Numbered from the stretch's first letter, positions 11,753 to 61,496 are shown. The stretch: 64,000 bases of DNA from a phage (GCA_033648345.1 GCA_033648345.1_4121.1), one strand, 5' to 3'. The notes: generated by a model not told the origin, from the letters alone. A program made the numbers and translations.

Positions 11753-11784
11753 TATATGAATGTAATATATCTATGGAGGATATA

Positions 11785-12615
11785 ATGGCGAATTTAAAAC
11801 TACTACAAGAAGCAATTGAAGCGTTTGCAAACGGCGAACAGGATGTTGCTGATAAAAAAATGCGTAAGTACTTTGTTGAGCAAGCTCAAGAAATCAATAA
11901 AGAACTAGAAGAAAGCATGGACGAAGAAGAATGTGAAGTTGAAGTCAAAGACGAAGAAAAACTTGACGAAGACTTTGATGTTCAACCAGACGCTGGTCTA
12001 AATGCTGAAATCGAATACACCCTAGGTGAAGAAGATGAAAGTGCCGAAGAAGAAGTTGAATTCTCTGCTGATGCTGATGGCGAAGAAGTTGACGCTGAAG
12101 CAGAAGTTGGTGCAGAAGTTCCTTCCGAAGACCAATGGGAATCTATTCAAGATGCTTTCCGTGGCCTACAACAAATGTTTGACGAAATCGGCGGTGATGA
12201 AGTTGACCTAGGTTCTGAAGACGAAGTTGAAGTTGGTGCGGAAGAAGAATTCGGTGCTGATGGTGAAGAATCTGAAGACGAATTTGCTGATGTACAATTC
12301 GGTGATGAGAAAGTTGGTGAGTCTTTCAAACTTAAGCAAGTTGCTGCGGTTGATAAGAAAGAAAAAGCTGGCGTTAATACCAAGTCTCCAGTTGCTCCAG
12401 AAGCTAAATCTCCAGTTCAAGGTGTTGCTCCAGTGAAATTCGCTAAAGCTTCCGAAAAACAAGTAGATTATGATTTTGAAAACGAAGATGCTATGTCTCA
12501 CACTGATGAAGACCTAGGTAAAAATGCTCGTGGCGAAATGAAAGATGTTGCGAAGCCAAAAAATACCGCTTCTAAATCTCGTTCTCCACTACCAAAATCA
12601 CAACCAAAAATCTAA
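11785..12615 (+). CDS. highly acidic prohead core/scaffold-associated protein
   Basis: Extremely Asp/Glu-rich; ATG 11785 preceded by GGAGGA; conserved late promoter block upstream; between gp67-like and gp21. Confidence 0.45.
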   Translation: MANLKLLQEAIEAFANGEQDVADKKMRKYFVEQAQEINKELEESMDEEECEVEVKDEEKLDEDFDVQPDAGLNAEIEYTLGEEDESAEEEVEFSADADGEEVDAEAEVGAEVPSEDQWESIQDAFRGLQQMFDEIGGDEVDLGSEDEVEVGAEEEFGADGEESEDEFADVQFGDEKVGESFKLKQVAAVDKKEKAGVNTKSPVAPEAKSPVQGVAPVKFAKASEKQVDYDFENEDAMSHTDEDLGKNARGEMKDVAKPKNTASKSRSPLPKSQPKI

Positions 12616-14473: not shown

Positions 14474-14505
14474 AAATTTTTCAGTTCTATAAATAATATC
14501 ATACT
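14474..14505 (+). promoter_or_regulatory. conserved late-promoter block with TATAAATA (copy 2) upstream of major capsid gene
   Basis: aaatttttcagttctataaataatatcatact. Confidence 0.6.
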
Positions 14506-14539: not shown

Positions 14540-15715
14540 ATGTCACAACTACTAAATGAATCCAAATGGGTAGCAGTTAAAGAGAAACTAGTTGAAGGTC
14601 TACAAGGTACTCGTAAGTCCGTAATGGAAACCGTACTTGATAACCATCGTAAACTAATGCTAAACGAATCTGCTACTTCTGGTGCAACCACCGCTGGTAA
14701 CATCGCTACTCTAAACAAAGTGATTCTACCAATTATGCGTCGTGTTATGCCAACCGTAATCGCTAACGAAATCATCGGTGTTCAGCCAATGACTGGCCCA
14801 GTTGGTCAGATCCACACCCTACGTGTTCAATATGCTGACAACGCTCCTGGTGTTATCGCTGGTGAAGAAATGCTTTCTCCATACAAAATCGCTAAGTCTT
14901 ATACTGGTGACCTAAACGCAGACAACAGCAACCCACAAGCTGCTCCTACTAGCCAACTAGAAGGTACTATGGGTCGTCGCGTTAACATCCGTATTCTACG
15001 TGAAACTGTTGAAGCGAAATCTCGTCGTCTATCTGCACGTTGGACTGTTGAATCTGCACAAGATGCACAATCCCAACATGGTATCGACGTTGAAGCTGAA
15101 CTAATGGCTGCAATCGCTCAAGAAGTTACCGTTGAAATCGACCAAGAGCTACTAAGCCGTCTACGTGCACTACCTGGTGCTGCTGCTGTAACTTATGACC
15201 AATCTAAAGTTACTGGTGTTGCGACCTTCGTTGGTGACGAGCACGCTGCTCTAGCTACCCTAATCAACCGTCAAGCGAACGAAGTTGCTCGTCGTACCAA
15301 ACGTGGTGCTGCGAACTGGGCTGTTGTTTCTCCAACCGCTCTAACCATTCTACAGTCTGCAACTACTTCTAGTTTTGCACGTACTACTGAAGGTACTTTC
15401 GAAGCTCCAACTAACGTTAAATTTGTTGGTACTCTAAACAGCACCATGCGTATCTTCGTTGATACCTATGCAAGTGATGTTGAAGATATCCTAATTGGTT
15501 ACAAAGGTAACGCTGAAACTGATGCTGGTGTGTTCTATTGCCCATACATCCCACTAATGGCTTCCGGTACTGTAATGGACCCTAACACTGGAGAACTCGT
15601 TACAACTTTCTTAACCAGATACGGGTATGTTCAGTTGACCGATAGCACCAGTTCACTAGGTAACGCTGCTGACTACTACAGTAAAATCGCTATCAAAAAC
15701 GTTACTTTCATGTAA
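14540..15715 (+). CDS. 23: major capsid protein (gp23-like, compact form)
   Basis: gp23/gp24-family sequence throughout; TATAAATA late promoter at ~14488; strong terminator downstream; codon usage differs from neighbours. Confidence 0.85.
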   Translation: MSQLLNESKWVAVKEKLVEGLQGTRKSVMETVLDNHRKLMLNESATSGATTAGNIATLNKVILPIMRRVMPTVIANEIIGVQPMTGPVGQIHTLRVQYADNAPGVIAGEEMLSPYKIAKSYTGDLNADNSNPQAAPTSQLEGTMGRRVNIRILRETVEAKSRRLSARWTVESAQDAQSQHGIDVEAELMAAIAQEVTVEIDQELLSRLRALPGAAAVTYDQSKVTGVATFVGDEHAALATLINRQANEVARRTKRGAANWAVVSPTALTILQSATTSSFARTTEGTFEAPTNVKFVGTLNSTMRIFVDTYASDVEDILIGYKGNAETDAGVFYCPYIPLMASGTVMDPNTGELVTTFLTRYGYVQLTDSTSSLGNAADYYSKIAIKNVTFM

Positions 15716-15843: not shown

Positions 15844-16950
15844 ATGCCAAAAGTAAGTATCGACAAAGAAAAATTCATTGAAGAGATGAACAACAAGTAT
15901 GGAGCATATGGTGAATTTGATTTCAGCACTTTAGTATTCAAAGCCAGTAAGACAACAGTTAAATGTAATAAATGCGGAAAAGAAAATACTAAACCTGCAC
16001 TACGTCACATTTCATGTACATGTTCTTCATGTTATTCAAACATGTCACAGCGTTCGAACAACGAAAAATTTATCAGCACGGTAGAAACTAAATTTGGAAA
16101 AGATAAATTCAAATTTGATAAACTAAATTACATTAACGCTATAACAAAAGTAACCATACTCTGCACAGACGAAGAACATAACGATTACTTTGAAATTACA
16201 CCAAACAAATTTCTTACTGGTAAGGGATGTCCTATATGTAATAAAAATGAAGCATACAGTACTGAAGAATTCGTAGAAAAAGTAAAAGAAAATTATGGTG
16301 ATTCATTAGATTTAACTAACACAGTATATGTAAATCAAAAAACTAAAGTAACTGTGTATTGTAAAGCGGGTAACCATGAATGGACAGTTGATCCGAAAAC
16401 TTTACTTGTTGGTAAGACTGGTTGTGGTACATGCTCCGGTAAAGGTGGTCGCAGTACTGAACGTTTCATTGAACTGGTATCACCTATCCATAACCATAAG
16501 TATGATTATAGTTTGGTTGAATATACTATAAGCGAGAATTATGTTGATATTGTATGTCCAACTCATGGTGTTTTCTCCCAACAACCAAAAGCACATATGG
16601 CTGGTAAAGGATGCCCATCATGTGGTGAATATGGATATCAGCCATCAAAACCTGGATATTTCTATGTTCAAAAACTAACTAATAAAGATAAGACAGTGTA
16701 CAAGTATGGAATCACTGGTGATATGAAACGCCGTGTAAATGAGCAAAGTCGTCATTCTGGTTTTGAACACACAGTACTGATAGAACGTTACTTTGAAGAT
16801 GGAAATCAACCATTACTGTTGGAAAAGTTCATAAAGAAATACATTGAAAGTGGTGTTGTAAGTACTGAAGAGTTGCCATCAGGATTTACTGAAACTTTTG
16901 ATGCTAAGTATCTTGAAAGTGTTTTAGAAATTGTAAATACTTTTAAGTAA
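15844..16950 (+). CDS. T5orf172/GIY-YIG-like domain protein with N-terminal Cys-rich repeats (homing-endonuclease-like)
   Basis: Repeated CxxC modules (KCNKCGKEN, GKGCPICNK, GKTGCGTCSGKGG, GKGCPSCGE); C-terminal YFYVQ...YKYGIT...R...E motif; own TTGACA-17-TATAAT promoter. Confidence 0.5.
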   Translation: MPKVSIDKEKFIEEMNNKYGAYGEFDFSTLVFKASKTTVKCNKCGKENTKPALRHISCTCSSCYSNMSQRSNNEKFISTVETKFGKDKFKFDKLNYINAITKVTILCTDEEHNDYFEITPNKFLTGKGCPICNKNEAYSTEEFVEKVKENYGDSLDLTNTVYVNQKTKVTVYCKAGNHEWTVDPKTLLVGKTGCGTCSGKGGRSTERFIELVSPIHNHKYDYSLVEYTISENYVDIVCPTHGVFSQQPKAHMAGKGCPSCGEYGYQPSKPGYFYVQKLTNKDKTVYKYGITGDMKRRVNEQSRHSGFEHTVLIERYFEDGNQPLLLEKFIKKYIESGVVSTEELPSGFTETFDAKYLESVLEIVNTFK

Positions 16951-23476: not shown

Positions 23477-24208
23477 ATGGATCTACGCAACGTACTACGT
23501 GACCTAGTTAACACTACCAACGGCATCGACTTTTCTTGTATCGCAGTTAGCAGTGAAGACCGTGGTGATGGACAGCGTGTTTACATGGAAGCATACACCG
23601 ATGACCGCACCCTAGTTATGCGTGCTCACACTAAAGAAGACGTACCAGAAGTTCAAGGTCGTTTTGGTCTTGGTAACCTAGGTCTTCTACAGGGTCTAAT
23701 GTCTCTAAAAACTTATAGTACTGAAGGAACTACTATCACTTCTAATTTGAAAGATGGTGCAGTTAAGAGCCTAGCATTCAAAGCAGAAGATGCAAGCACT
23801 ACTTTCATGGTTCAACCAGAAAAACTAATTCCAGCCCAGCCTCGTTTCCATGAACAACCATATGACGTACAGGTTACACCTAGTGCAGCTAAAGTTCAGG
23901 AACTAAAAAGTTTCTCTGGTGTGTTTAAATCTTTCAGTTCTCTAGTAACTCCATACACTGAAGGTGATACTCTTTACTTCCACGTTGGTGAGAAGAATAA
24001 AAGTAACCACGTTGGTGCACTAGCATTCTCTAAAACTGAAGGTGAACTAGGTCTTGGTTTTGGTTATAACATTGACCGTGTTCTACAAGCTCTATCCCGC
24101 GTTTCTAACGCAGAATCTGTTACCCTTGGTATTACCAAAACTGGTATGCTAAACGTAACTCTAGACACTGGTATTGCGGTATACAAGATTTACGTAACAG
24201 GTTGCTAA
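23477..24208 (+). CDS. 45: sliding clamp gp45-like
   Basis: 243 aa, size and N-terminal pattern compatible with T4 gp45; early promoter 23380..23409. Confidence 0.55.
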   Translation: MDLRNVLRDLVNTTNGIDFSCIAVSSEDRGDGQRVYMEAYTDDRTLVMRAHTKEDVPEVQGRFGLGNLGLLQGLMSLKTYSTEGTTITSNLKDGAVKSLAFKAEDASTTFMVQPEKLIPAQPRFHEQPYDVQVTPSAAKVQELKSFSGVFKSFSSLVTPYTEGDTLYFHVGEKNKSNHVGALAFSKTEGELGLGFGYNIDRVLQALSRVSNAESVTLGITKTGMLNVTLDTGIAVYKIYVTGC

Positions 24209-24482: not shown

Positions 24483-24785
24483 ATGAAAATTAAAATGATT
24501 AACGATTATGTACTGGTTCGTCAAATTGAAGCACAGAATAAAAGTACTGGTGGTATTATCCTAGGAAACGTTGAACCACCATGTGTTGGTATGGTGATTT
24601 CAGTTGGTGAAGGTAAAGTACTACCTAATGGGCAAATTGCAGAACATAATATTTGTGTTGGTGATATGGTTGTATTCGGTCGTTCATCACTAAACACTCC
24701 TATCACTGAAGATCTTGGTGGTGGTGAAGACACATATTATGTGATGAAAATTGAAGAAATTTTTGGTAAGAAATCAAATGGCTAA
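24483..24785 (+). CDS. GroES-like co-chaperonin (gp31 functional analog)
   Basis: 100 aa; VLVRQ...KSTGGIIL, VISVGEG and VGDMVVF match GroES/Cpn10 signature. Confidence 0.7.
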   Translation: MKIKMINDYVLVRQIEAQNKSTGGIILGNVEPPCVGMVISVGEGKVLPNGQIAEHNICVGDMVVFGRSSLNTPITEDLGGGEDTYYVMKIEEIFGKKSNG

Positions 24786-25503
24786 AAAAAGGTTTATTCC
24801 TTTCTGGATGGTCCCCGCTCATTGGGGACTTTCTGGTAAAGCGAAAGAGATTGCGAAAGCATACTACTATAACGATGATTATGAAGCTGATATGTTAGTT
24901 GCAGAACTTACATATCTAACACCATATGAAGTTGATGTAGCACAGTTGGATATCAAAAAGAAATACAATGTATTAGAAACTCTTGATTATCTAATAGCAC
25001 AGGCAGATGTACAATTGAAGTATTCCAAGATTACCCGTGATGAGTATAATGTAAAATTACTTGATGCTAAATTAAGTACTGGTGCAATTACTCAAAAAGA
25101 GTATGATATGGAAGTAATCGAACTAATGCCTGATGGTGATGACAAACGTCTTAAAGCTATCGAGTTTGCATATCGTTATGAAGAGATTACACAACAAGAG
25201 TATTCAAAGGAAATCTTTACTTTACGTAAAGAACCTTGGATTGATTTGGATGTAGTACTTAATCCAGAAACAAATGAAGTTGAATTTGTTTTTGATTATA
25301 ATGAATACTTTTGGAAAAAGTTAAAAGCGGAAGGTCATCCAGGTAATGACGAAGAAGAAATTATTGACAACTTCGTTAGAGACATGGGGCGTAAACTAGC
25401 TACGGATGATTTCAGTGATGATTATGACGTAAAGCTAGTGAATGCGAACGAAGGGTTAGAGAATCTACCTGGTTTACCTGAAGGGTTCCGTTCATACAAA
25501 TAA
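24778..25503 (+). CDS. hypothetical protein with short ITxxEY repeats
   Basis: Start overlaps GroES-like stop (ATGGCTAA); followed by bidirectional terminator. Confidence 0.45.
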   Translation: MAKKRFIPFWMVPAHWGLSGKAKEIAKAYYYNDDYEADMLVAELTYLTPYEVDVAQLDIKKKYNVLETLDYLIAQADVQLKYSKITRDEYNVKLLDAKLSTGAITQKEYDMEVIELMPDGDDKRLKAIEFAYRYEEITQQEYSKEIFTLRKEPWIDLDVVLNPETNEVEFVFDYNEYFWKKLKAEGHPGNDEEEIIDNFVRDMGRKLATDDFSDDYDVKLVNANEGLENLPGLPEGFRSYK

Positions 25504-25508
25504 AAAAA

Positions 25509-25536
25509 GGAGAGCAAAAGCTCTCCTTTTCTTTTA
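25509..25536. terminator. bidirectional terminator between convergent genes
   Basis: ggagagc-aaaa-gctctcc flanked by A-run and T-run. Confidence 0.65.
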
Positions 25537-25547
25537 TCTTTAATTTA

Positions 25548-26237
25548 TTAAACCATCGCTGGGATGAATTTGAATAGTTTGATACCGAAGTCACCAGCAG
25601 CATCAGCAGCTTGGGAACGTAGAACAACTTCAGTAACACCATCTTTAGCGAGTAGTGGAACTGCGGTTAGGTCATCAATTAGTAGACGGCCTTCTTCGAT
25701 CTCAGTACTTGGAACGCCTTGGAAAGATTGAATATCTTTATCAAATACGTTAGCACGTTCAACGAGGAAAGTAACTACTGAAGCACTAGCGATATCAACA
25801 GACCCAACACTTAGGATACCGTCAGCAGCGTTGGTAAAACCAGTAACTGCAAATGGCTCAGCGTCGTTGCCAGCGATTTCGGAAGTAGCGATGATAACTG
25901 CACGTTGTTGAACAACATCAACGATACGTTTAACGTTAGTTTGTGCAGCGTAAGCAGCGTTATAATCAGCTTCTAGAGTTGCTGCTTCAAATGGAGTACC
26001 ATCGACACGGATGATACCTTTTTCGTTTAGATATGCAACGATTTCATCAGCTACGTCAGTGTTTAGGAAACGTTGTAGACCAGCGAAAGAACCAACTGCA
26101 CCAGTAACACGCACGTTAACATTACCAATTTTACTAATTGCGATAGATGCTAGGGCGTTTTTACCACAGAAGTAACCTAGAATTTTATCAAAGGAATAAC
26201 CATTGATACGTTCAAAAGAAGTATTAGTATTAGACAT
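25548..26237 (-). CDS. putative virion structural protein (paralog A)
   Basis: Ala/Val/Gly/Thr-rich; paralogous to 26253..26852 (shared QQRAV...TS...VFDK); higher G+C than surroundings. Confidence 0.5.
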   Translation of the reverse strand: MSNTNTSFERINGYSFDKILGYFCGKNALASIAISKIGNVNVRVTGAVGSFAGLQRFLNTDVADEIVAYLNEKGIIRVDGTPFEAATLEADYNAAYAAQTNVKRIVDVVQQRAVIIATSEIAGNDAEPFAVTGFTNAADGILSVGSVDIASASVVTFLVERANVFDKDIQSFQGVPSTEIEEGRLLIDDLTAVPLLAKDGVTEVVLRSQAADAAGDFGIKLFKFIPAMV

Positions 26238-26252
26238 ATTGTAGTCCCCCTA

Positions 26253-26852
26253 TTATAGTTGTACTGGTAGAGCAGCACGAACTTTAATTGCAACAGCGTC
26301 AGCGGCAGCAGCATCACCAACACCATCAGTACCTAGAGCAACATAAGATTTGGTACGGAAGAATTTAGCTTGTGCAATAGCTTTAGCTAGTTCAACAGTT
26401 GGATCAACTGGAACAGAGTAAGCAGCACCTGGGCGAACTTCTTGTTTGTCAAATACGTCTTGACGTTCACAGATGAAGGTTAGAGCAACAGAACCAGCAC
26501 CACCTGTAACATCAGCACCACTAGTACCAAACGCGATTACGTTACCACCAACGGTTTTAAAGTCAGCAGGGATAACAACAGCGGTGTCTAGAGCTAGTAC
26601 GGAAGTAGTAACTAGTACTGCACGTTGTTGTAGTAGTTGGGTAATCATGAATTGGTTGTATTGAGCATTGCTGATTGCAGTTTGTAGTGCTTCATCTTGA
26701 ATTTCGGAACCGTCAGAAGTAACAGCGGTAGTACCAACTTCAACATCTGCTGGTAGATCAACAACGATGGTTACGAAACCATTGTTACCACCCCAGTATT
26801 CACGAGCAGTAGCAGACATACCATAGTTACGGTTAAAAGAATTAAGACTCAT
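26253..26852 (-). CDS. putative virion structural protein (paralog B)
   Basis: Paralog of 25548..26237; two late-promoter-like blocks upstream on minus strand. Confidence 0.5.
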   Translation of the reverse strand: MSLNSFNRNYGMSATAREYWGGNNGFVTIVVDLPADVEVGTTAVTSDGSEIQDEALQTAISNAQYNQFMITQLLQQRAVLVTTSVLALDTAVVIPADFKTVGGNVIAFGTSGADVTGGAGSVALTFICERQDVFDKQEVRPGAAYSVPVDPTVELAKAIAQAKFFRTKSYVALGTDGVGDAAAADAVAIKVRAALPVQL

Positions 26853-26884
26853 AAAAATCTCCTTGTCAAATTTTGTGCAGGAAC

Positions 26885-26945
26885 ACCCTGCTTAATATTA
26901 TTTATCAAAAAATATAAACCACATTTAAATTTAAGGCAATATTCC
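26885..26945 (-). promoter_or_regulatory. two late-promoter-like blocks (GATAAATAATAT) upstream of structural paralog genes
   Basis: Reverse complement reads gataaataatatcatagag and gataaataatattaagc. Confidence 0.45.
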
Positions 26946-26973
26946 CTGATCTCTATGATATTATTTATCAAAT

Positions 26974-32220
<5,247 letters not shown>

Positions 32221-32306: not shown

Positions 32307-32392
32307 GTAAATTGTTGATGAGTCAATGAAGACAAATCAACGTTAATAGCCCGTTAAACTTAACAAACAAACTAATGACAAGGAAGCCCAAT

Positions 32393-33442
32393 ATGCAAAC
32401 TCTAGCTGAAATTCGTGCAAAACTAAAAGCTGAACAAGAAAAAGCAGAAGCACAGAAGAATGGTACATTTACAGGTGAACGTAAAGCCGATTCTTTCCTA
32501 GCTTTCTGGAATGTCCCTTACAATGAACCACTAAACCTACGTTTTCTACCAGATGCTGATGAGTCTAACCCATTCTTCTGGCGTGAACGTGATATGATCA
32601 ACCTAACGTTCCAAGGTATTGTTGGTATGCACACCGATAAAGTTACCGTTCAAGTACCATGTAACGAAATGTGGGTTCCTAAATCATGTCCAATTCTTAA
32701 AGAAGTACGTCAATGGTTCCAAAGTGCGAATGAAACTGGAAATGAAGAACTGAAAGCAATGGCTGGTCGTTACTGGAAAAAGAAAACCTATCTAATGCAA
32801 TGTTTCGTTGCTCCTGATAGCGTAGCAGTAAAAGACGATATTGCTCCAGAAAACCCAATCCGTCGTATCCTAGCTAACAAAGATATCTTTGATAAAGTTA
32901 AATCTATCCTGCTAAACCCAGGCATCAAAGAACTACCAACTCACTACATTCACGGTCGTGACTTTGGTATTGTTAAAACTAAGAATGGTGGTGGTTACAA
33001 TAGCTATGACATGTCTCAATTCTCCATGTCCGAGCGTCCACTCAATGAAGAAGAACTGGCAGCGATTGAAAAGTTTGGTCTATATAATCTAAATGATTTT
33101 ATGCCAAAACAACCAACTCCAGAAGAACTAAAAGCTATCGAAGAAATGTTCGAAGCATCTGTTGATGGTAAACCTTATGACCCTGCACGTTGGGCTTTCG
33201 CTTACCGTCCAGCAGGTGTACAAAAACCAACAACTGGTACTATTAGTGAAAACAAACCTGCTCCACAAGCTCCAGTACAACAACCTGCTCCTGCACAAAC
33301 TCCTGCACCGCAAGCACCAGTAGCTACTCCTACTCCTGCTGCTGAACCAGTAGCTGCTGCACCAGCACCAGTAGCTGAAGCTCCAAAAGAACAACTTTCT
33401 GCATCTGCACTAGTTGCTCGTTTGAAACAACAAGGTAAGTAA
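32393..33442 (+). CDS. 32: single-stranded DNA-binding protein gp32
   Basis: LRFLPDADESNPFF resembles T4 gp32 RFLPSKNDEQAPFA; Cys/His zinc site; Pro/Ala-rich acidic C-terminal tail; AAGGA RBS at ATG 32393. Confidence 0.8.
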   Translation: MQTLAEIRAKLKAEQEKAEAQKNGTFTGERKADSFLAFWNVPYNEPLNLRFLPDADESNPFFWRERDMINLTFQGIVGMHTDKVTVQVPCNEMWVPKSCPILKEVRQWFQSANETGNEELKAMAGRYWKKKTYLMQCFVAPDSVAVKDDIAPENPIRRILANKDIFDKVKSILLNPGIKELPTHYIHGRDFGIVKTKNGGGYNSYDMSQFSMSERPLNEEELAAIEKFGLYNLNDFMPKQPTPEELKAIEEMFEASVDGKPYDPARWAFAYRPAGVQKPTTGTISENKPAPQAPVQQPAPAQTPAPQAPVATPTPAAEPVAAAPAPVAEAPKEQLSASALVARLKQQGK

Positions 33443-60846: not shown

Positions 60847-60929
60847 TAGACTAAATGATATACACAAATAATTTTGATTCTTAACAATAAATAATCAAAA
60901 GTGTTTTGTATTATGGAGAAGAATATACA

Positions 60930-61496
60930 ATGAACAATTTACTACAAGTATTCAAAATTGAAGTTGCAGGGACAAATCTAGATAATATTCCTTATTATAT
61001 GTATGAAGATTATGATTCATCTTCCCCAACAACTGCACCAACCGACCAACAAACAATTGACAAGTCTGTAGCACTACTACGTTACCTACAGGTTACACGT
61101 CTACTATCAACATATTCTGTTCCAGTGTATTGTACTGTTGAATTTGCTACCCCAGGCACAGCAGCAACTATTCCAACTGGTGCAACCATCAATGTTGGTT
61201 ATATCAGCTACGAGCCATTCCTAAGCACTCTAAGTGTTGAAGAACAAGCTGCACTAACCACTGTTGATCTTAAAACTGCTAAAGCAGCAGAAGTTATTCA
61301 AGAGTTGCTAAACGAATCCCTAAAAGGTGACGGTACTAACGCAATTGAGAATGAAGAAATTTCTGTTCAGAAAACAATCCAACGTGTTAAAGATGCACTA
61401 TCTACCACCACTGTTGATTTCATTGAGTACGAGAATGTGTACCTAAACGTACCTTCTATTACTGATGCTTCTGTAGTTTCTTACGTAAAATTATAA
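60930..61496 (+). CDS. hypothetical protein
   Basis: ATG 60930 after GGAGAAG. Confidence 0.4.
   Translation: MNNLLQVFKIEVAGTNLDNIPYYMYEDYDSSSPTTAPTDQQTIDKSVALLRYLQVTRLLSTYSVPVYCTVEFATPGTAATIPTGATINVGYISYEPFLSTLSVEEQAALTTVDLKTAKAAEVIQELLNESLKGDGTNAIENEEISVQKTIQRVKDALSTTTVDFIEYENVYLNVPSITDASVVSYVKL

Follow-up and report, generated by a model that had tools for sequence, protein, structure and literature searches.

Two genes lie in tandem on the minus strand of a 64,000-nucleotide stretch of phage DNA, referred to here as the window. Both ORFs, designated gA and gB, occupy the positions given in a preliminary description of the locus. The window derives from a jumbo coliphage of the RaK2/121Q type, not from a T4 phage. 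Over the 2.5 kb around the pair, identity is 99.5-99.8% to the Escherichia jumbo phages BF17, Turkey3, WPEC5, and fEgEco12 (350-385 kb) and ~82% to the group of 121Q, PBECO4, and phAPEC6 (Asteriusvirus). Both proteins are 100% identical to database entries, those matched by gA being proteins of BF17, fEgEco12, and EC.P1. The features of the locus are as follows.

26253-26852, minus strand: gA, an ORF of 199 aa, the upstream gene of the pair, a member of phrog_9326; orthologs are fEgEco12 g364, 121Q gp618, phAPEC6 gp210, RaK2 gp107, and CBB_271
25548-26237, minus strand: gB, an ORF of 229 aa, the downstream paralog, also a member of phrog_9326; orthologs are fEgEco12 g363, 121Q gp617, phAPEC6 gp211, RaK2 gp106, and CBB_270
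26859-26864, minus strand: Shine-Dalgarno sequence of gA, AAGGAG, read from the sequence, 6 nt before the ATG
26245-26250, minus strand: Shine-Dalgarno-like sequence of gB, GGGGGA, inside the 15-nt gap between the two genes
26877-26891, minus strand: small stem-loop, GCAGG-N5-CCTGC, 5 bp, just downstream of the proximal promoter block
26895-26908, minus strand: proximal late-promoter-like block, TTGATAAATAATAT, with an ATAAATA core that starts 53 nt upstream of the gA ATG
26958-26971, minus strand: distal late-promoter-like block, TTGATAAATAATAT, 116 nt upstream of the gA ATG
25502-25533, both strands: bidirectional intrinsic terminator, common to the gA-gB operon and to the convergent plus-strand GroES/structural-gene unit

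The arrangement of signals points to a single transcription unit. No promoter-like or terminator-like signal was found between gA and gB, so the two genes are probably bicistronic. At the ribosome-binding site of gA, GGAGATTT is invariant in 8/8 aligned relatives. On the minus strand, the terminator behind gB forms a stem of 14 pairs with a T-run after it; read on the plus strand, it has 11 pairs, again ending in a T-run. A terminator is annotated at the equivalent place in Salmonella phage Munch.

Late-promoter-like blocks had been noticed upstream of the pair, and their pattern proves to be duplicated, conserved across genera, and common to the major capsid gene. The two copies of TTGATAAATAATAT are exact and lie 63 nt apart, against a chance expectation of 0.17; none of 100 shuffled sequences contained two matches. 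In the proximal block, TTTGATAAATAA..TTAAG is invariant in seven enterobacterial-phage sequences (the window, phAPEC6, RaK2, CBB, Munch, Yen9-03, and Kaldavass), and the ATAAATA cores of both blocks are kept in those seven and in a shorter 121Q sequence, while the flanks have diverged. The distal block has a 15-mer, ATAAATAATATCATA, in common with a promoter-like site at 14489, 51 nt upstream of the major capsid gene. Across the window, an ORF start on the same strand follows 10-120 nt after 11 of the 20 ATAAATA sites, versus 4.7% expected (binomial p 3e-10). The genes so preceded include those for the scaffold (13334), the major capsid protein (14540), a tail fibre (17714), and another virion protein (30916).

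ATAAATA was proposed in the description of phage CBB as a putative late-promoter consensus upstream of CBB and GAP32 structural genes and was likened to the T4 late promoter TATAAATA; the same study reported a gp55-like sigma factor and no gp33 homolog (PMC5259590). The likeness to T4 late genes, which are expressed from gp55-dependent TATAAATA promoters, extends to spacing, with an ATAAATA core 36-65 nt upstream of several virion-gene starts in the window. An element of this kind lies at a suitable distance upstream of gA and is common to other virion genes. Unlike in T4, the putative consensus is extended (GATAAATAATAT) and duplicated.

The stem-loop between the proximal block and the gA ribosome-binding site belongs to the minimum-free-energy structure. 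Across eight sequences, 92.5% of cells pair while the loops vary, a modest signal given that 18 of 500 shuffles reach the observed value. The RaK2 version reads GTAAG/CTTAC, amounting to two compensatory pairs. If initiation is T4-like, this leader hairpin would be predicted to sit at the 5' end of the late transcript or close to it.

Both proteins are rich in Ala, Val, Gly, and Thr, as had been seen by eye, and their genes are higher in G+C than their surroundings. The summed fraction of these four residues is 0.45 in gA and 0.38 in gB, versus a mean of 0.25 (sd 0.06) over 53 window ORFs, and G+C is 0.43 and 0.42, respectively, versus 0.362 for the window. Since the G+C excess sits in codon positions 1 and 2 (GC1 of 0.65 in gA and 0.60 in gB) and GC3 is not raised (0.20 in gA and 0.25 in gB, at or under the ORF mean of 0.26), the elevated G+C reflects amino-acid content. 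The clamp and ssDNA-binding genes (0.42 each) and the major capsid gene (0.45) follow the same pattern. A foreign origin was considered as the cause of the raised G+C and rejected, given the ordinary GC3 and the likeness to the capsid, clamp, and ssDNA-binding genes. Both proteins are acidic and low in Lys and Arg (K+R 0.07-0.08).

Synonymous codon usage in gA and gB is the most biased in the window. CTA makes up 92% of Leu codons in gA, 87% in gB, and 84% in the major capsid gene, against a mean of 31%; CGT and GGT are likewise favoured in the pair. The distinct composition claimed in the preliminary description is therefore real as a measurement, but a distinct origin does not follow from it, since amino-acid content and high-expression codon usage account for it. 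The composition of gA and gB is a signature of heavy expression, not of foreign DNA.

gA and gB are paralogs along their full length. In a direct BLASTP comparison only the QQRAV...TS...VFDK core, on which the paralogy was originally proposed, is aligned (35% identity over 83 aa, E 1e-6). Both proteins match phrog_9326, annotated 'virion structural protein', from end to end (profile positions 1-195 of 195; E 9e-81 for gB and 2.6e-82 for gA). A profile-profile comparison of the gA and gB families with hhalign gives a probability of 99.9% and E 2.5e-35 over 180 columns, with the caveat that the gB alignment took in three distant sequences first retrieved with gA. The sole large difference between the two proteins is a helical insertion of ~30 residues in gB.

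The family to which they belong is narrow. Protein-level homologs occur in 74 phage records, from phages of Escherichia, Klebsiella (RaK2, K64-1), Salmonella, Erwinia, Yersinia, Serratia, Cronobacter (GAP32), Pectobacterium (CBB), Xanthomonas, and Vibrio. Only 41 family members came out of an exhaustive profile search covering 1.84 billion cluster representatives, and none of them connects the family to a larger one. Some distant homologs carry a domain of ~90 residues with GG(T/S)GY-type repeats, inserted in a variable loop before the last strand; the inserted domain has no match in Pfam or the PDB. Pfam and NCBIfam searches with gA and gB returned sub-threshold noise only (HTH_62, OxRdtase_C, and Mmp10, the last at 25 bits versus a cutoff of 350), and a PDB sequence search returned nothing significant. 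Several labels attached to orthologs, namely 'hemagglutinin repeat' (phAPEC6 gp211), 'recombination protein' (CRJP21), and 'ACC deaminase' (JGI), find no support in these family searches.

The tandem arrangement is as conserved as the proteins themselves. The position and orientation of the pair did not vary among the loci inspected (fEgEco12, CBB, phAPEC6, RaK2, 121Q, Munch, Yen9-03, Kaldavass, a Vibrio phage, and metagenomic contigs): it sits between the genes for RNase H and the GroES-like protein, divergent from the RNase H/terminase genes and convergent with a small gene and the GroES-like gene. RaK2 gp107/gp106, phAPEC6 gp210/gp211, CBB_271/CBB_270, and 121Q gp618/gp617 are direct orthologs at 60-100% identity with the same order, orientation, and neighbours, and differ from the window's pair in essentially nothing. 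The most distant relatives, the Vibrio phage and marine metagenomic contigs, keep the same arrangement with three tandem genes, and all three Vibrio phage genes are family members. The neighbourhoods of these most distant homologs were inspected for shuffled synteny that might hint at a head or a tail role, and synteny was unchanged.

The pair had been described as embedded antisense within a replication gene array. The strand is as described, but the neighbours form a mosaic of head, packaging, and replication genes. Window genes around the pair encode the portal, prohead protease, scaffold, major capsid protein, a tail fibre, DNA polymerase, clamp, GroES-like protein, RNase H, terminase, ssDNA-binding protein, and a further virion protein. 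The major capsid gene is a separate gene at 14540-15715 (phrog_138, E 6e-98). None of the window ORFs examined was recognised as a sheath gene. In genomes as mosaic as these, the position of a gene carries little weight, and the PHROG category 'head and packaging' is a default label for 'virion structural protein'. As a side observation on the neighbouring packaging genes, the large terminase subunit of this lineage requires a +1 frame change within its Walker A motif.

The gene pair is already known: tandem, distantly related, and abundant virion proteins were described for RaK2 in 2013 (PMC3622015). On SDS-PAGE of RaK2 only a few bands are labelled: besides those of the capsid protein, the sheath, and a single fibre protein, they include gp106 and gp107, both identified by MS/MS (PMC3622015). 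Both run at their full predicted mass and so appear to be unprocessed (PMC3622015). In the phAPEC6 virion, MS sequence coverage is 69.8% for gp210 and 69.9% for gp211, compared with capsid-protein and sheath values of 74.9% and 68.0%, respectively (PMC7247149). In the CBB virion, CBB_270 has the top coverage of 55 proteins at 91.3%, and CBB_271 reaches 56.4% (PMC5259590). Sequence coverage is a rough proxy only for copy number in these comparisons. The virion proteomics proposed as a check on the locus had thus already been published for orthologs, and the finding of these proteins in purified RaK2, phAPEC6, and CBB virions at very high coverage supports their reading as abundant virion proteins. 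It is very probable that gA and gB form a late operon encoding virion proteins.

Where in the virion these proteins reside is a matter of several competing readings. The authors of the RaK2 study proposed that one of the pair is the tail tube protein, on the strength of size (21-25 kDa), abundance, and a propensity for beta-strands, no tube gene having been found by then (PMC3622015). In size and abundance gA and gB do resemble the T4 gp19-type tail tube (phrog_45/phrog_4542). Better candidates for the tube, however, adjoin the sheath gene. In K64-1, a sister phage of RaK2, the sheath gene is immediately followed by three genes (gp048-050) that match the tail-tube PHROGs phrog_4542 (E 4.5e-82), phrog_13438, and the broad phrog_45 (E 1.5e-4), and in phAPEC6 the sheath-adjacent proteins of matching size (gp273c-275c) are present in the virion proteome (PMC7247149). 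gA and gB themselves have no match to a tube family or fold, and no tail-tube family appears among their PHROG or Pfam hits. The 2013 proposal is unlikely and largely refuted; a tube role for either protein now has very little to recommend it.

A place on the tail surface, either as a ring-like collar or distal-tail decoration or as an anchor of the 'hairy' sheath fibres, is improbable on other grounds. Such structures do lack genes: the phAPEC6 tail bears a decoration protein at two levels as well as fibre rings, none with a gene assigned (PMC7247149), and hairy appendages, likewise with no gene assigned, are present on all phages of the group. Tens of copies would be needed for a role of this kind, a poor fit with capsid-like codon bias, two promoters of the capsid-gene type, and top-ranking MS coverage. 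Distance also argues against the tail surface. The sheath and tube genes of K64-1 lie at ~22-28 kb and its gA ortholog at ~99 kb, placing the whole sheath, tube, and baseplate block tens of kb from the pair.

Structure prediction and fold comparison, the second check that had been proposed, leave the family structurally isolated. AlphaFold2 models reach pLDDT 81.9 and pTM 0.77 for gA (37-sequence alignment) and pLDDT 81.2 and pTM 0.79 for gB (43-sequence alignment). Each model consists of a ~26-residue helix packed on a beta-sheet with short helices, forming an alpha+beta sandwich. Foldseek comparison of the models with the PDB gave no significant match, and a BFVD search returned only uncharacterised proteins of related jumbo phages. 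Neither search produced an enzyme-like fold, the outcome that the preliminary description had set against its virion-protein reading, nor a tail-tube/Hcp beta-sandwich, an Ig-like fold, or a known decoration fold. There is likewise no match of gA or gB to the HK97 fold or a major-head-protein profile, and none in sequence, or among the fold matches listed, to the described decoration families (Soc, Hoc/Ig-like, gpD, Dec, and pb10). Failure to place the pair in any known T4 structural family, first noted from the sequence, thus persists through Pfam, NCBIfam, PDB sequence, and fold searches.

The N-terminus is the most distinctive part of the models. The first 21 residues of gA (12 in gB) form an arm with pLDDT <50, and the gA arm has 11 of the 30 invariant columns of the gA family (M1, R8, N9, Y10, G11, E18, W20, G21, G22, N24, and G25). 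Such a combination of conservation with predicted disorder in the monomer is commonly seen in arms that take on order only upon assembly. The ~90-aa domain inserted in a loop of distant homologs is a hint of surface exposure.

Published low-resolution capsid reconstructions of two close relatives offer a structure that such proteins might occupy. At 10 Å, the phAPEC6 capsid shows an elongated second-layer protein that forms a hexagonal network over the capsid-protein layer (PMC7247149). [quoted passage not shown] On the 121Q capsid, zig-zag ridges have been seen that are possibly an independent decoration protein. The phAPEC6 authors, with both proteins of the pair in their proteome, left the second-layer density unassigned and allowed that it might be an extra domain of the capsid protein (PMC7247149). 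No high-resolution capsid or tail structure of RaK2, 121Q, or an Asteriusvirus was found in the literature. The phiKp24 cryo-EM structure was considered as a structural reference and set aside; its capsid is built of a single protein and its tube gene adjoins the sheath gene, with no link to gA or gB (PMC9700779).

The preferred reading, at a probability of roughly 0.45, is that gA and gB are a pair of capsid accessory (cement or decoration) proteins that form the outer layer of the T=28 capsid. It is favoured because the pair combines duplicate promoters of the capsid-gene type, capsid-level codon bias, and top-ranking coverage, and because the proteins show no apparent processing, an acidic shell-like composition, a conserved docking arm, an insertion-tolerant loop, and a location among head genes. 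Against an outer capsid layer, the predicted fold appears to resemble no known decoration protein. The functional analogy proposed is with T4 Soc/Hoc and lambda gpD, which are similarly small, abundant, late, unprocessed accessory proteins, possibly reinforcing an HK97-fold shell at capsomer interfaces. The analogy stops there: gA and gB have no sequence or fold similarity to these proteins, they are two co-expressed paralogs, and their binding to the capsid is a proposal only.

Other positions in the head have been weighed against the outer layer. The pair could instead fill minor capsid positions, as a dimeric fibre anchor at hexamer centres or as a dome-like vertex protein. Both slots are without a gene in phAPEC6, and the hexamer-centre density is dimeric, which a gA-gB heterodimer could fit (PMC7247149); with 270 hexamers, such an anchor would still call for ~270 copies or more of each protein. 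Expression signals on a par with the capsid gene's point to a higher stoichiometry, and at 10 Å nothing discriminates between minor positions and a capsid layer. On balance minor positions are unlikely.

A similarly unlikely alternative is that gA and gB are internal head proteins, for example of an 'inner body' like that of phiKZ, as seen by bubblegram imaging in 121Q and phAPEC6. The inner body exists, measures 91 x 18 nm, and has no proteins assigned to it; inner-body proteins are abundant, and gA and gB lie near head-morphogenesis genes. In T4 and phiKZ, the prohead protease cleaves the internal proteins and the inner-body proteins, respectively. RaK2 gp106 and gp107, by contrast, appear on the gel at full size and apparently unprocessed (PMC3622015). 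An internal location also sits poorly with the acidic, shell-protein-like composition of the pair (K+R 0.07-0.08), and the loop domain inserted in distant homologs suits an exposed surface better.

The preferred reading as a whole runs as follows. In a RaK2/121Q-type jumbo myophage, two tandem T4-like late-promoter motifs of the major-capsid-gene type precede a probable bicistronic late gA-gB operon, which also has a small conserved leader hairpin, strong ribosome-binding sites, high-expression codon bias, and a terminator. The two products may act as non-redundant partners, perhaps in a hetero-oligomer, because phages ranging from those of Escherichia to those of Vibrio keep both paralogs side by side and in one order. 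Together they would fill the elongated second-layer density on the phAPEC6 and 121Q capsids, with the strictly conserved N-terminal 25 residues serving as a docking arm for the capsid protein or the partner subunit. [quoted passage not shown]

To the description of the pair from RaK2, the present analysis adds evidence against a tail-tube role, an account of the raised G+C as a matter of composition and expression, and a duplicated late promoter of the capsid-gene type with a putative leader hairpin. It also adds the view of the family as narrow and structurally isolated and a specific, testable assignment to a capsid layer. Within a clade of 350-kb jumbo phages that spans Asteriusvirus, Alcyoneusvirus, Mimasvirus, Eneladusvirus, and marine relatives, the pair ranks with the most abundant proteins; several of these phages are under development for therapy. 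Assigning gA and gB would fill a gap that has been named in the capsid reconstructions of phAPEC6 and 121Q and could show how the T=28 shell that holds 350 kb of DNA is reinforced. A heteromeric cement lattice, if it exists, would represent a new structural class of capsid stabilisation, specific to RaK2-like jumbo phages, and would explain the constant presence of two or three tandem paralogs in the family.

Eleven of the 20 ATAAATA sites in the window, the core of the late-promoter-like blocks, lie 19-116 nt upstream of a same-strand ORF start (p 3e-10), and their placement maps out candidate late promoters across the window. Genes covered in this way include those for the scaffold, the major capsid protein and a tail fibre, together with a virion gene at 30916. 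The leader of gA, which with its paralog gB makes up the phrog_9326 pair, also carries a conserved stem.

13280, 14489, 17675, 24210, 30880, 45803, 60887, 62885 (+): ATAAATA sites upstream of ORFs
5445, 26905, 26968 (-): ATAAATA sites upstream of ORFs
26877-26891 (-): conserved 5-bp hairpin, GCAGG-N5-10-CCTGC, immediately 3' of the proximal late-promoter block of gA

The RaK2 counterpart of this hairpin reads GTAAG/CTTAC, a difference of two compensatory pairs. The element may be a stem-loop with a stabilising role, placed at the mRNA 5' terminus.

A subset of genes is marked by its leucine codons, CTA accounting for 68-92% of them against a mean of 31% in the window. Besides gA and gB themselves, it comprises the genes for the capsid protein, the clamp, the ssDNA-binding protein and a virion protein of the prohead region, and an ORF at 60906. 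No tRNA gene was found within the window; the preference may stem from a tRNA-Leu that the phage encodes in another part of its genome.

11773-12615, 14540-15715, 23477-24208, 32375-33442, 60906-61496: example CTA-rich genes

An endonuclease gene sits immediately 3' of the major capsid gene.

15844-16950 (+): HNH or homing-type endonuclease gene (phrog_681/559)

The gene for the terminase large subunit (TerL) is divided between two reading frames, and the break falls within the Walker A motif.

29239-30883 (+): TerL, in two reading frames with the junction near 29498-29505

The DNA there reads ...CGT CAG ATG C GGA AAA ACA ACC GTT..., while TerL of CBB has TARQMGKTTV at the same motif, so that one C would have to be skipped in the window to give MGKTTV. 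The split could reflect a programmed +1 frameshift within an essential gene, or a TerL made in two pieces. It could also be an assembly artefact common to the records. The 91 nt at the junction are 100% identical in nine separately deposited phage records (BF17, fEgEco12, Turkey3, WPEC3, WPEC5, Ecwhy_1, TH47, EC.P1 and vB_Ec-M-J). The 121Q/phAPEC6 group aligns to this segment with one base fewer, and the phAPEC6 annotation gives TerL as one ORF.

In 121Q, fEgEco12 and CBB, the convergent neighbour of the gA-gB pair goes by the name 'virion structural protein'.

24778-25503 (+): convergent neighbour of gA-gB, phrog_13349

The orthologs phAPEC6 gp212c and CBB_269 are missing from both published virion proteomes (phAPEC6 and CBB), so that the name may have been carried over without evidence. 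Names of the gA/gB orthologs themselves conflict between database records. No family match lies behind 'hemagglutinin repeat-containing protein' for phAPEC6 gp211, 'recombination protein' for the CRJP21 ortholog or 'ACC deaminase/D-cysteine desulfhydrase-like' for a JGI ortholog entry.

Three metagenomic homologs of gA/gB (P0149, P0151 and P0152; 290-300 aa) contain an extra domain of about 90 residues, inserted into the family fold at the variable loop ahead of the final beta-strand. The domain bears repeated GG(T/S)GY and SGGS(D/G)(Y/F) motifs. Searches of Pfam and PDB returned no match to it, and its PHROG matches are weak, to repetitive stretches in one baseplate wedge protein and one head-closure protein.

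In distant marine relatives the gA-gB locus, its position unchanged, holds three genes in tandem.

L010 1135-3206: three-gene tandem array, Vibrio phage 2.275.O
L012 9068-11390 and L014 4651-6277: three-gene tandem arrays, marine relatives (metagenomic contigs)

All three array genes of Vibrio phage 2.275.O are family members, the first matching phrog_9326 (E 4e-17), and the copy number of the array is therefore variable.
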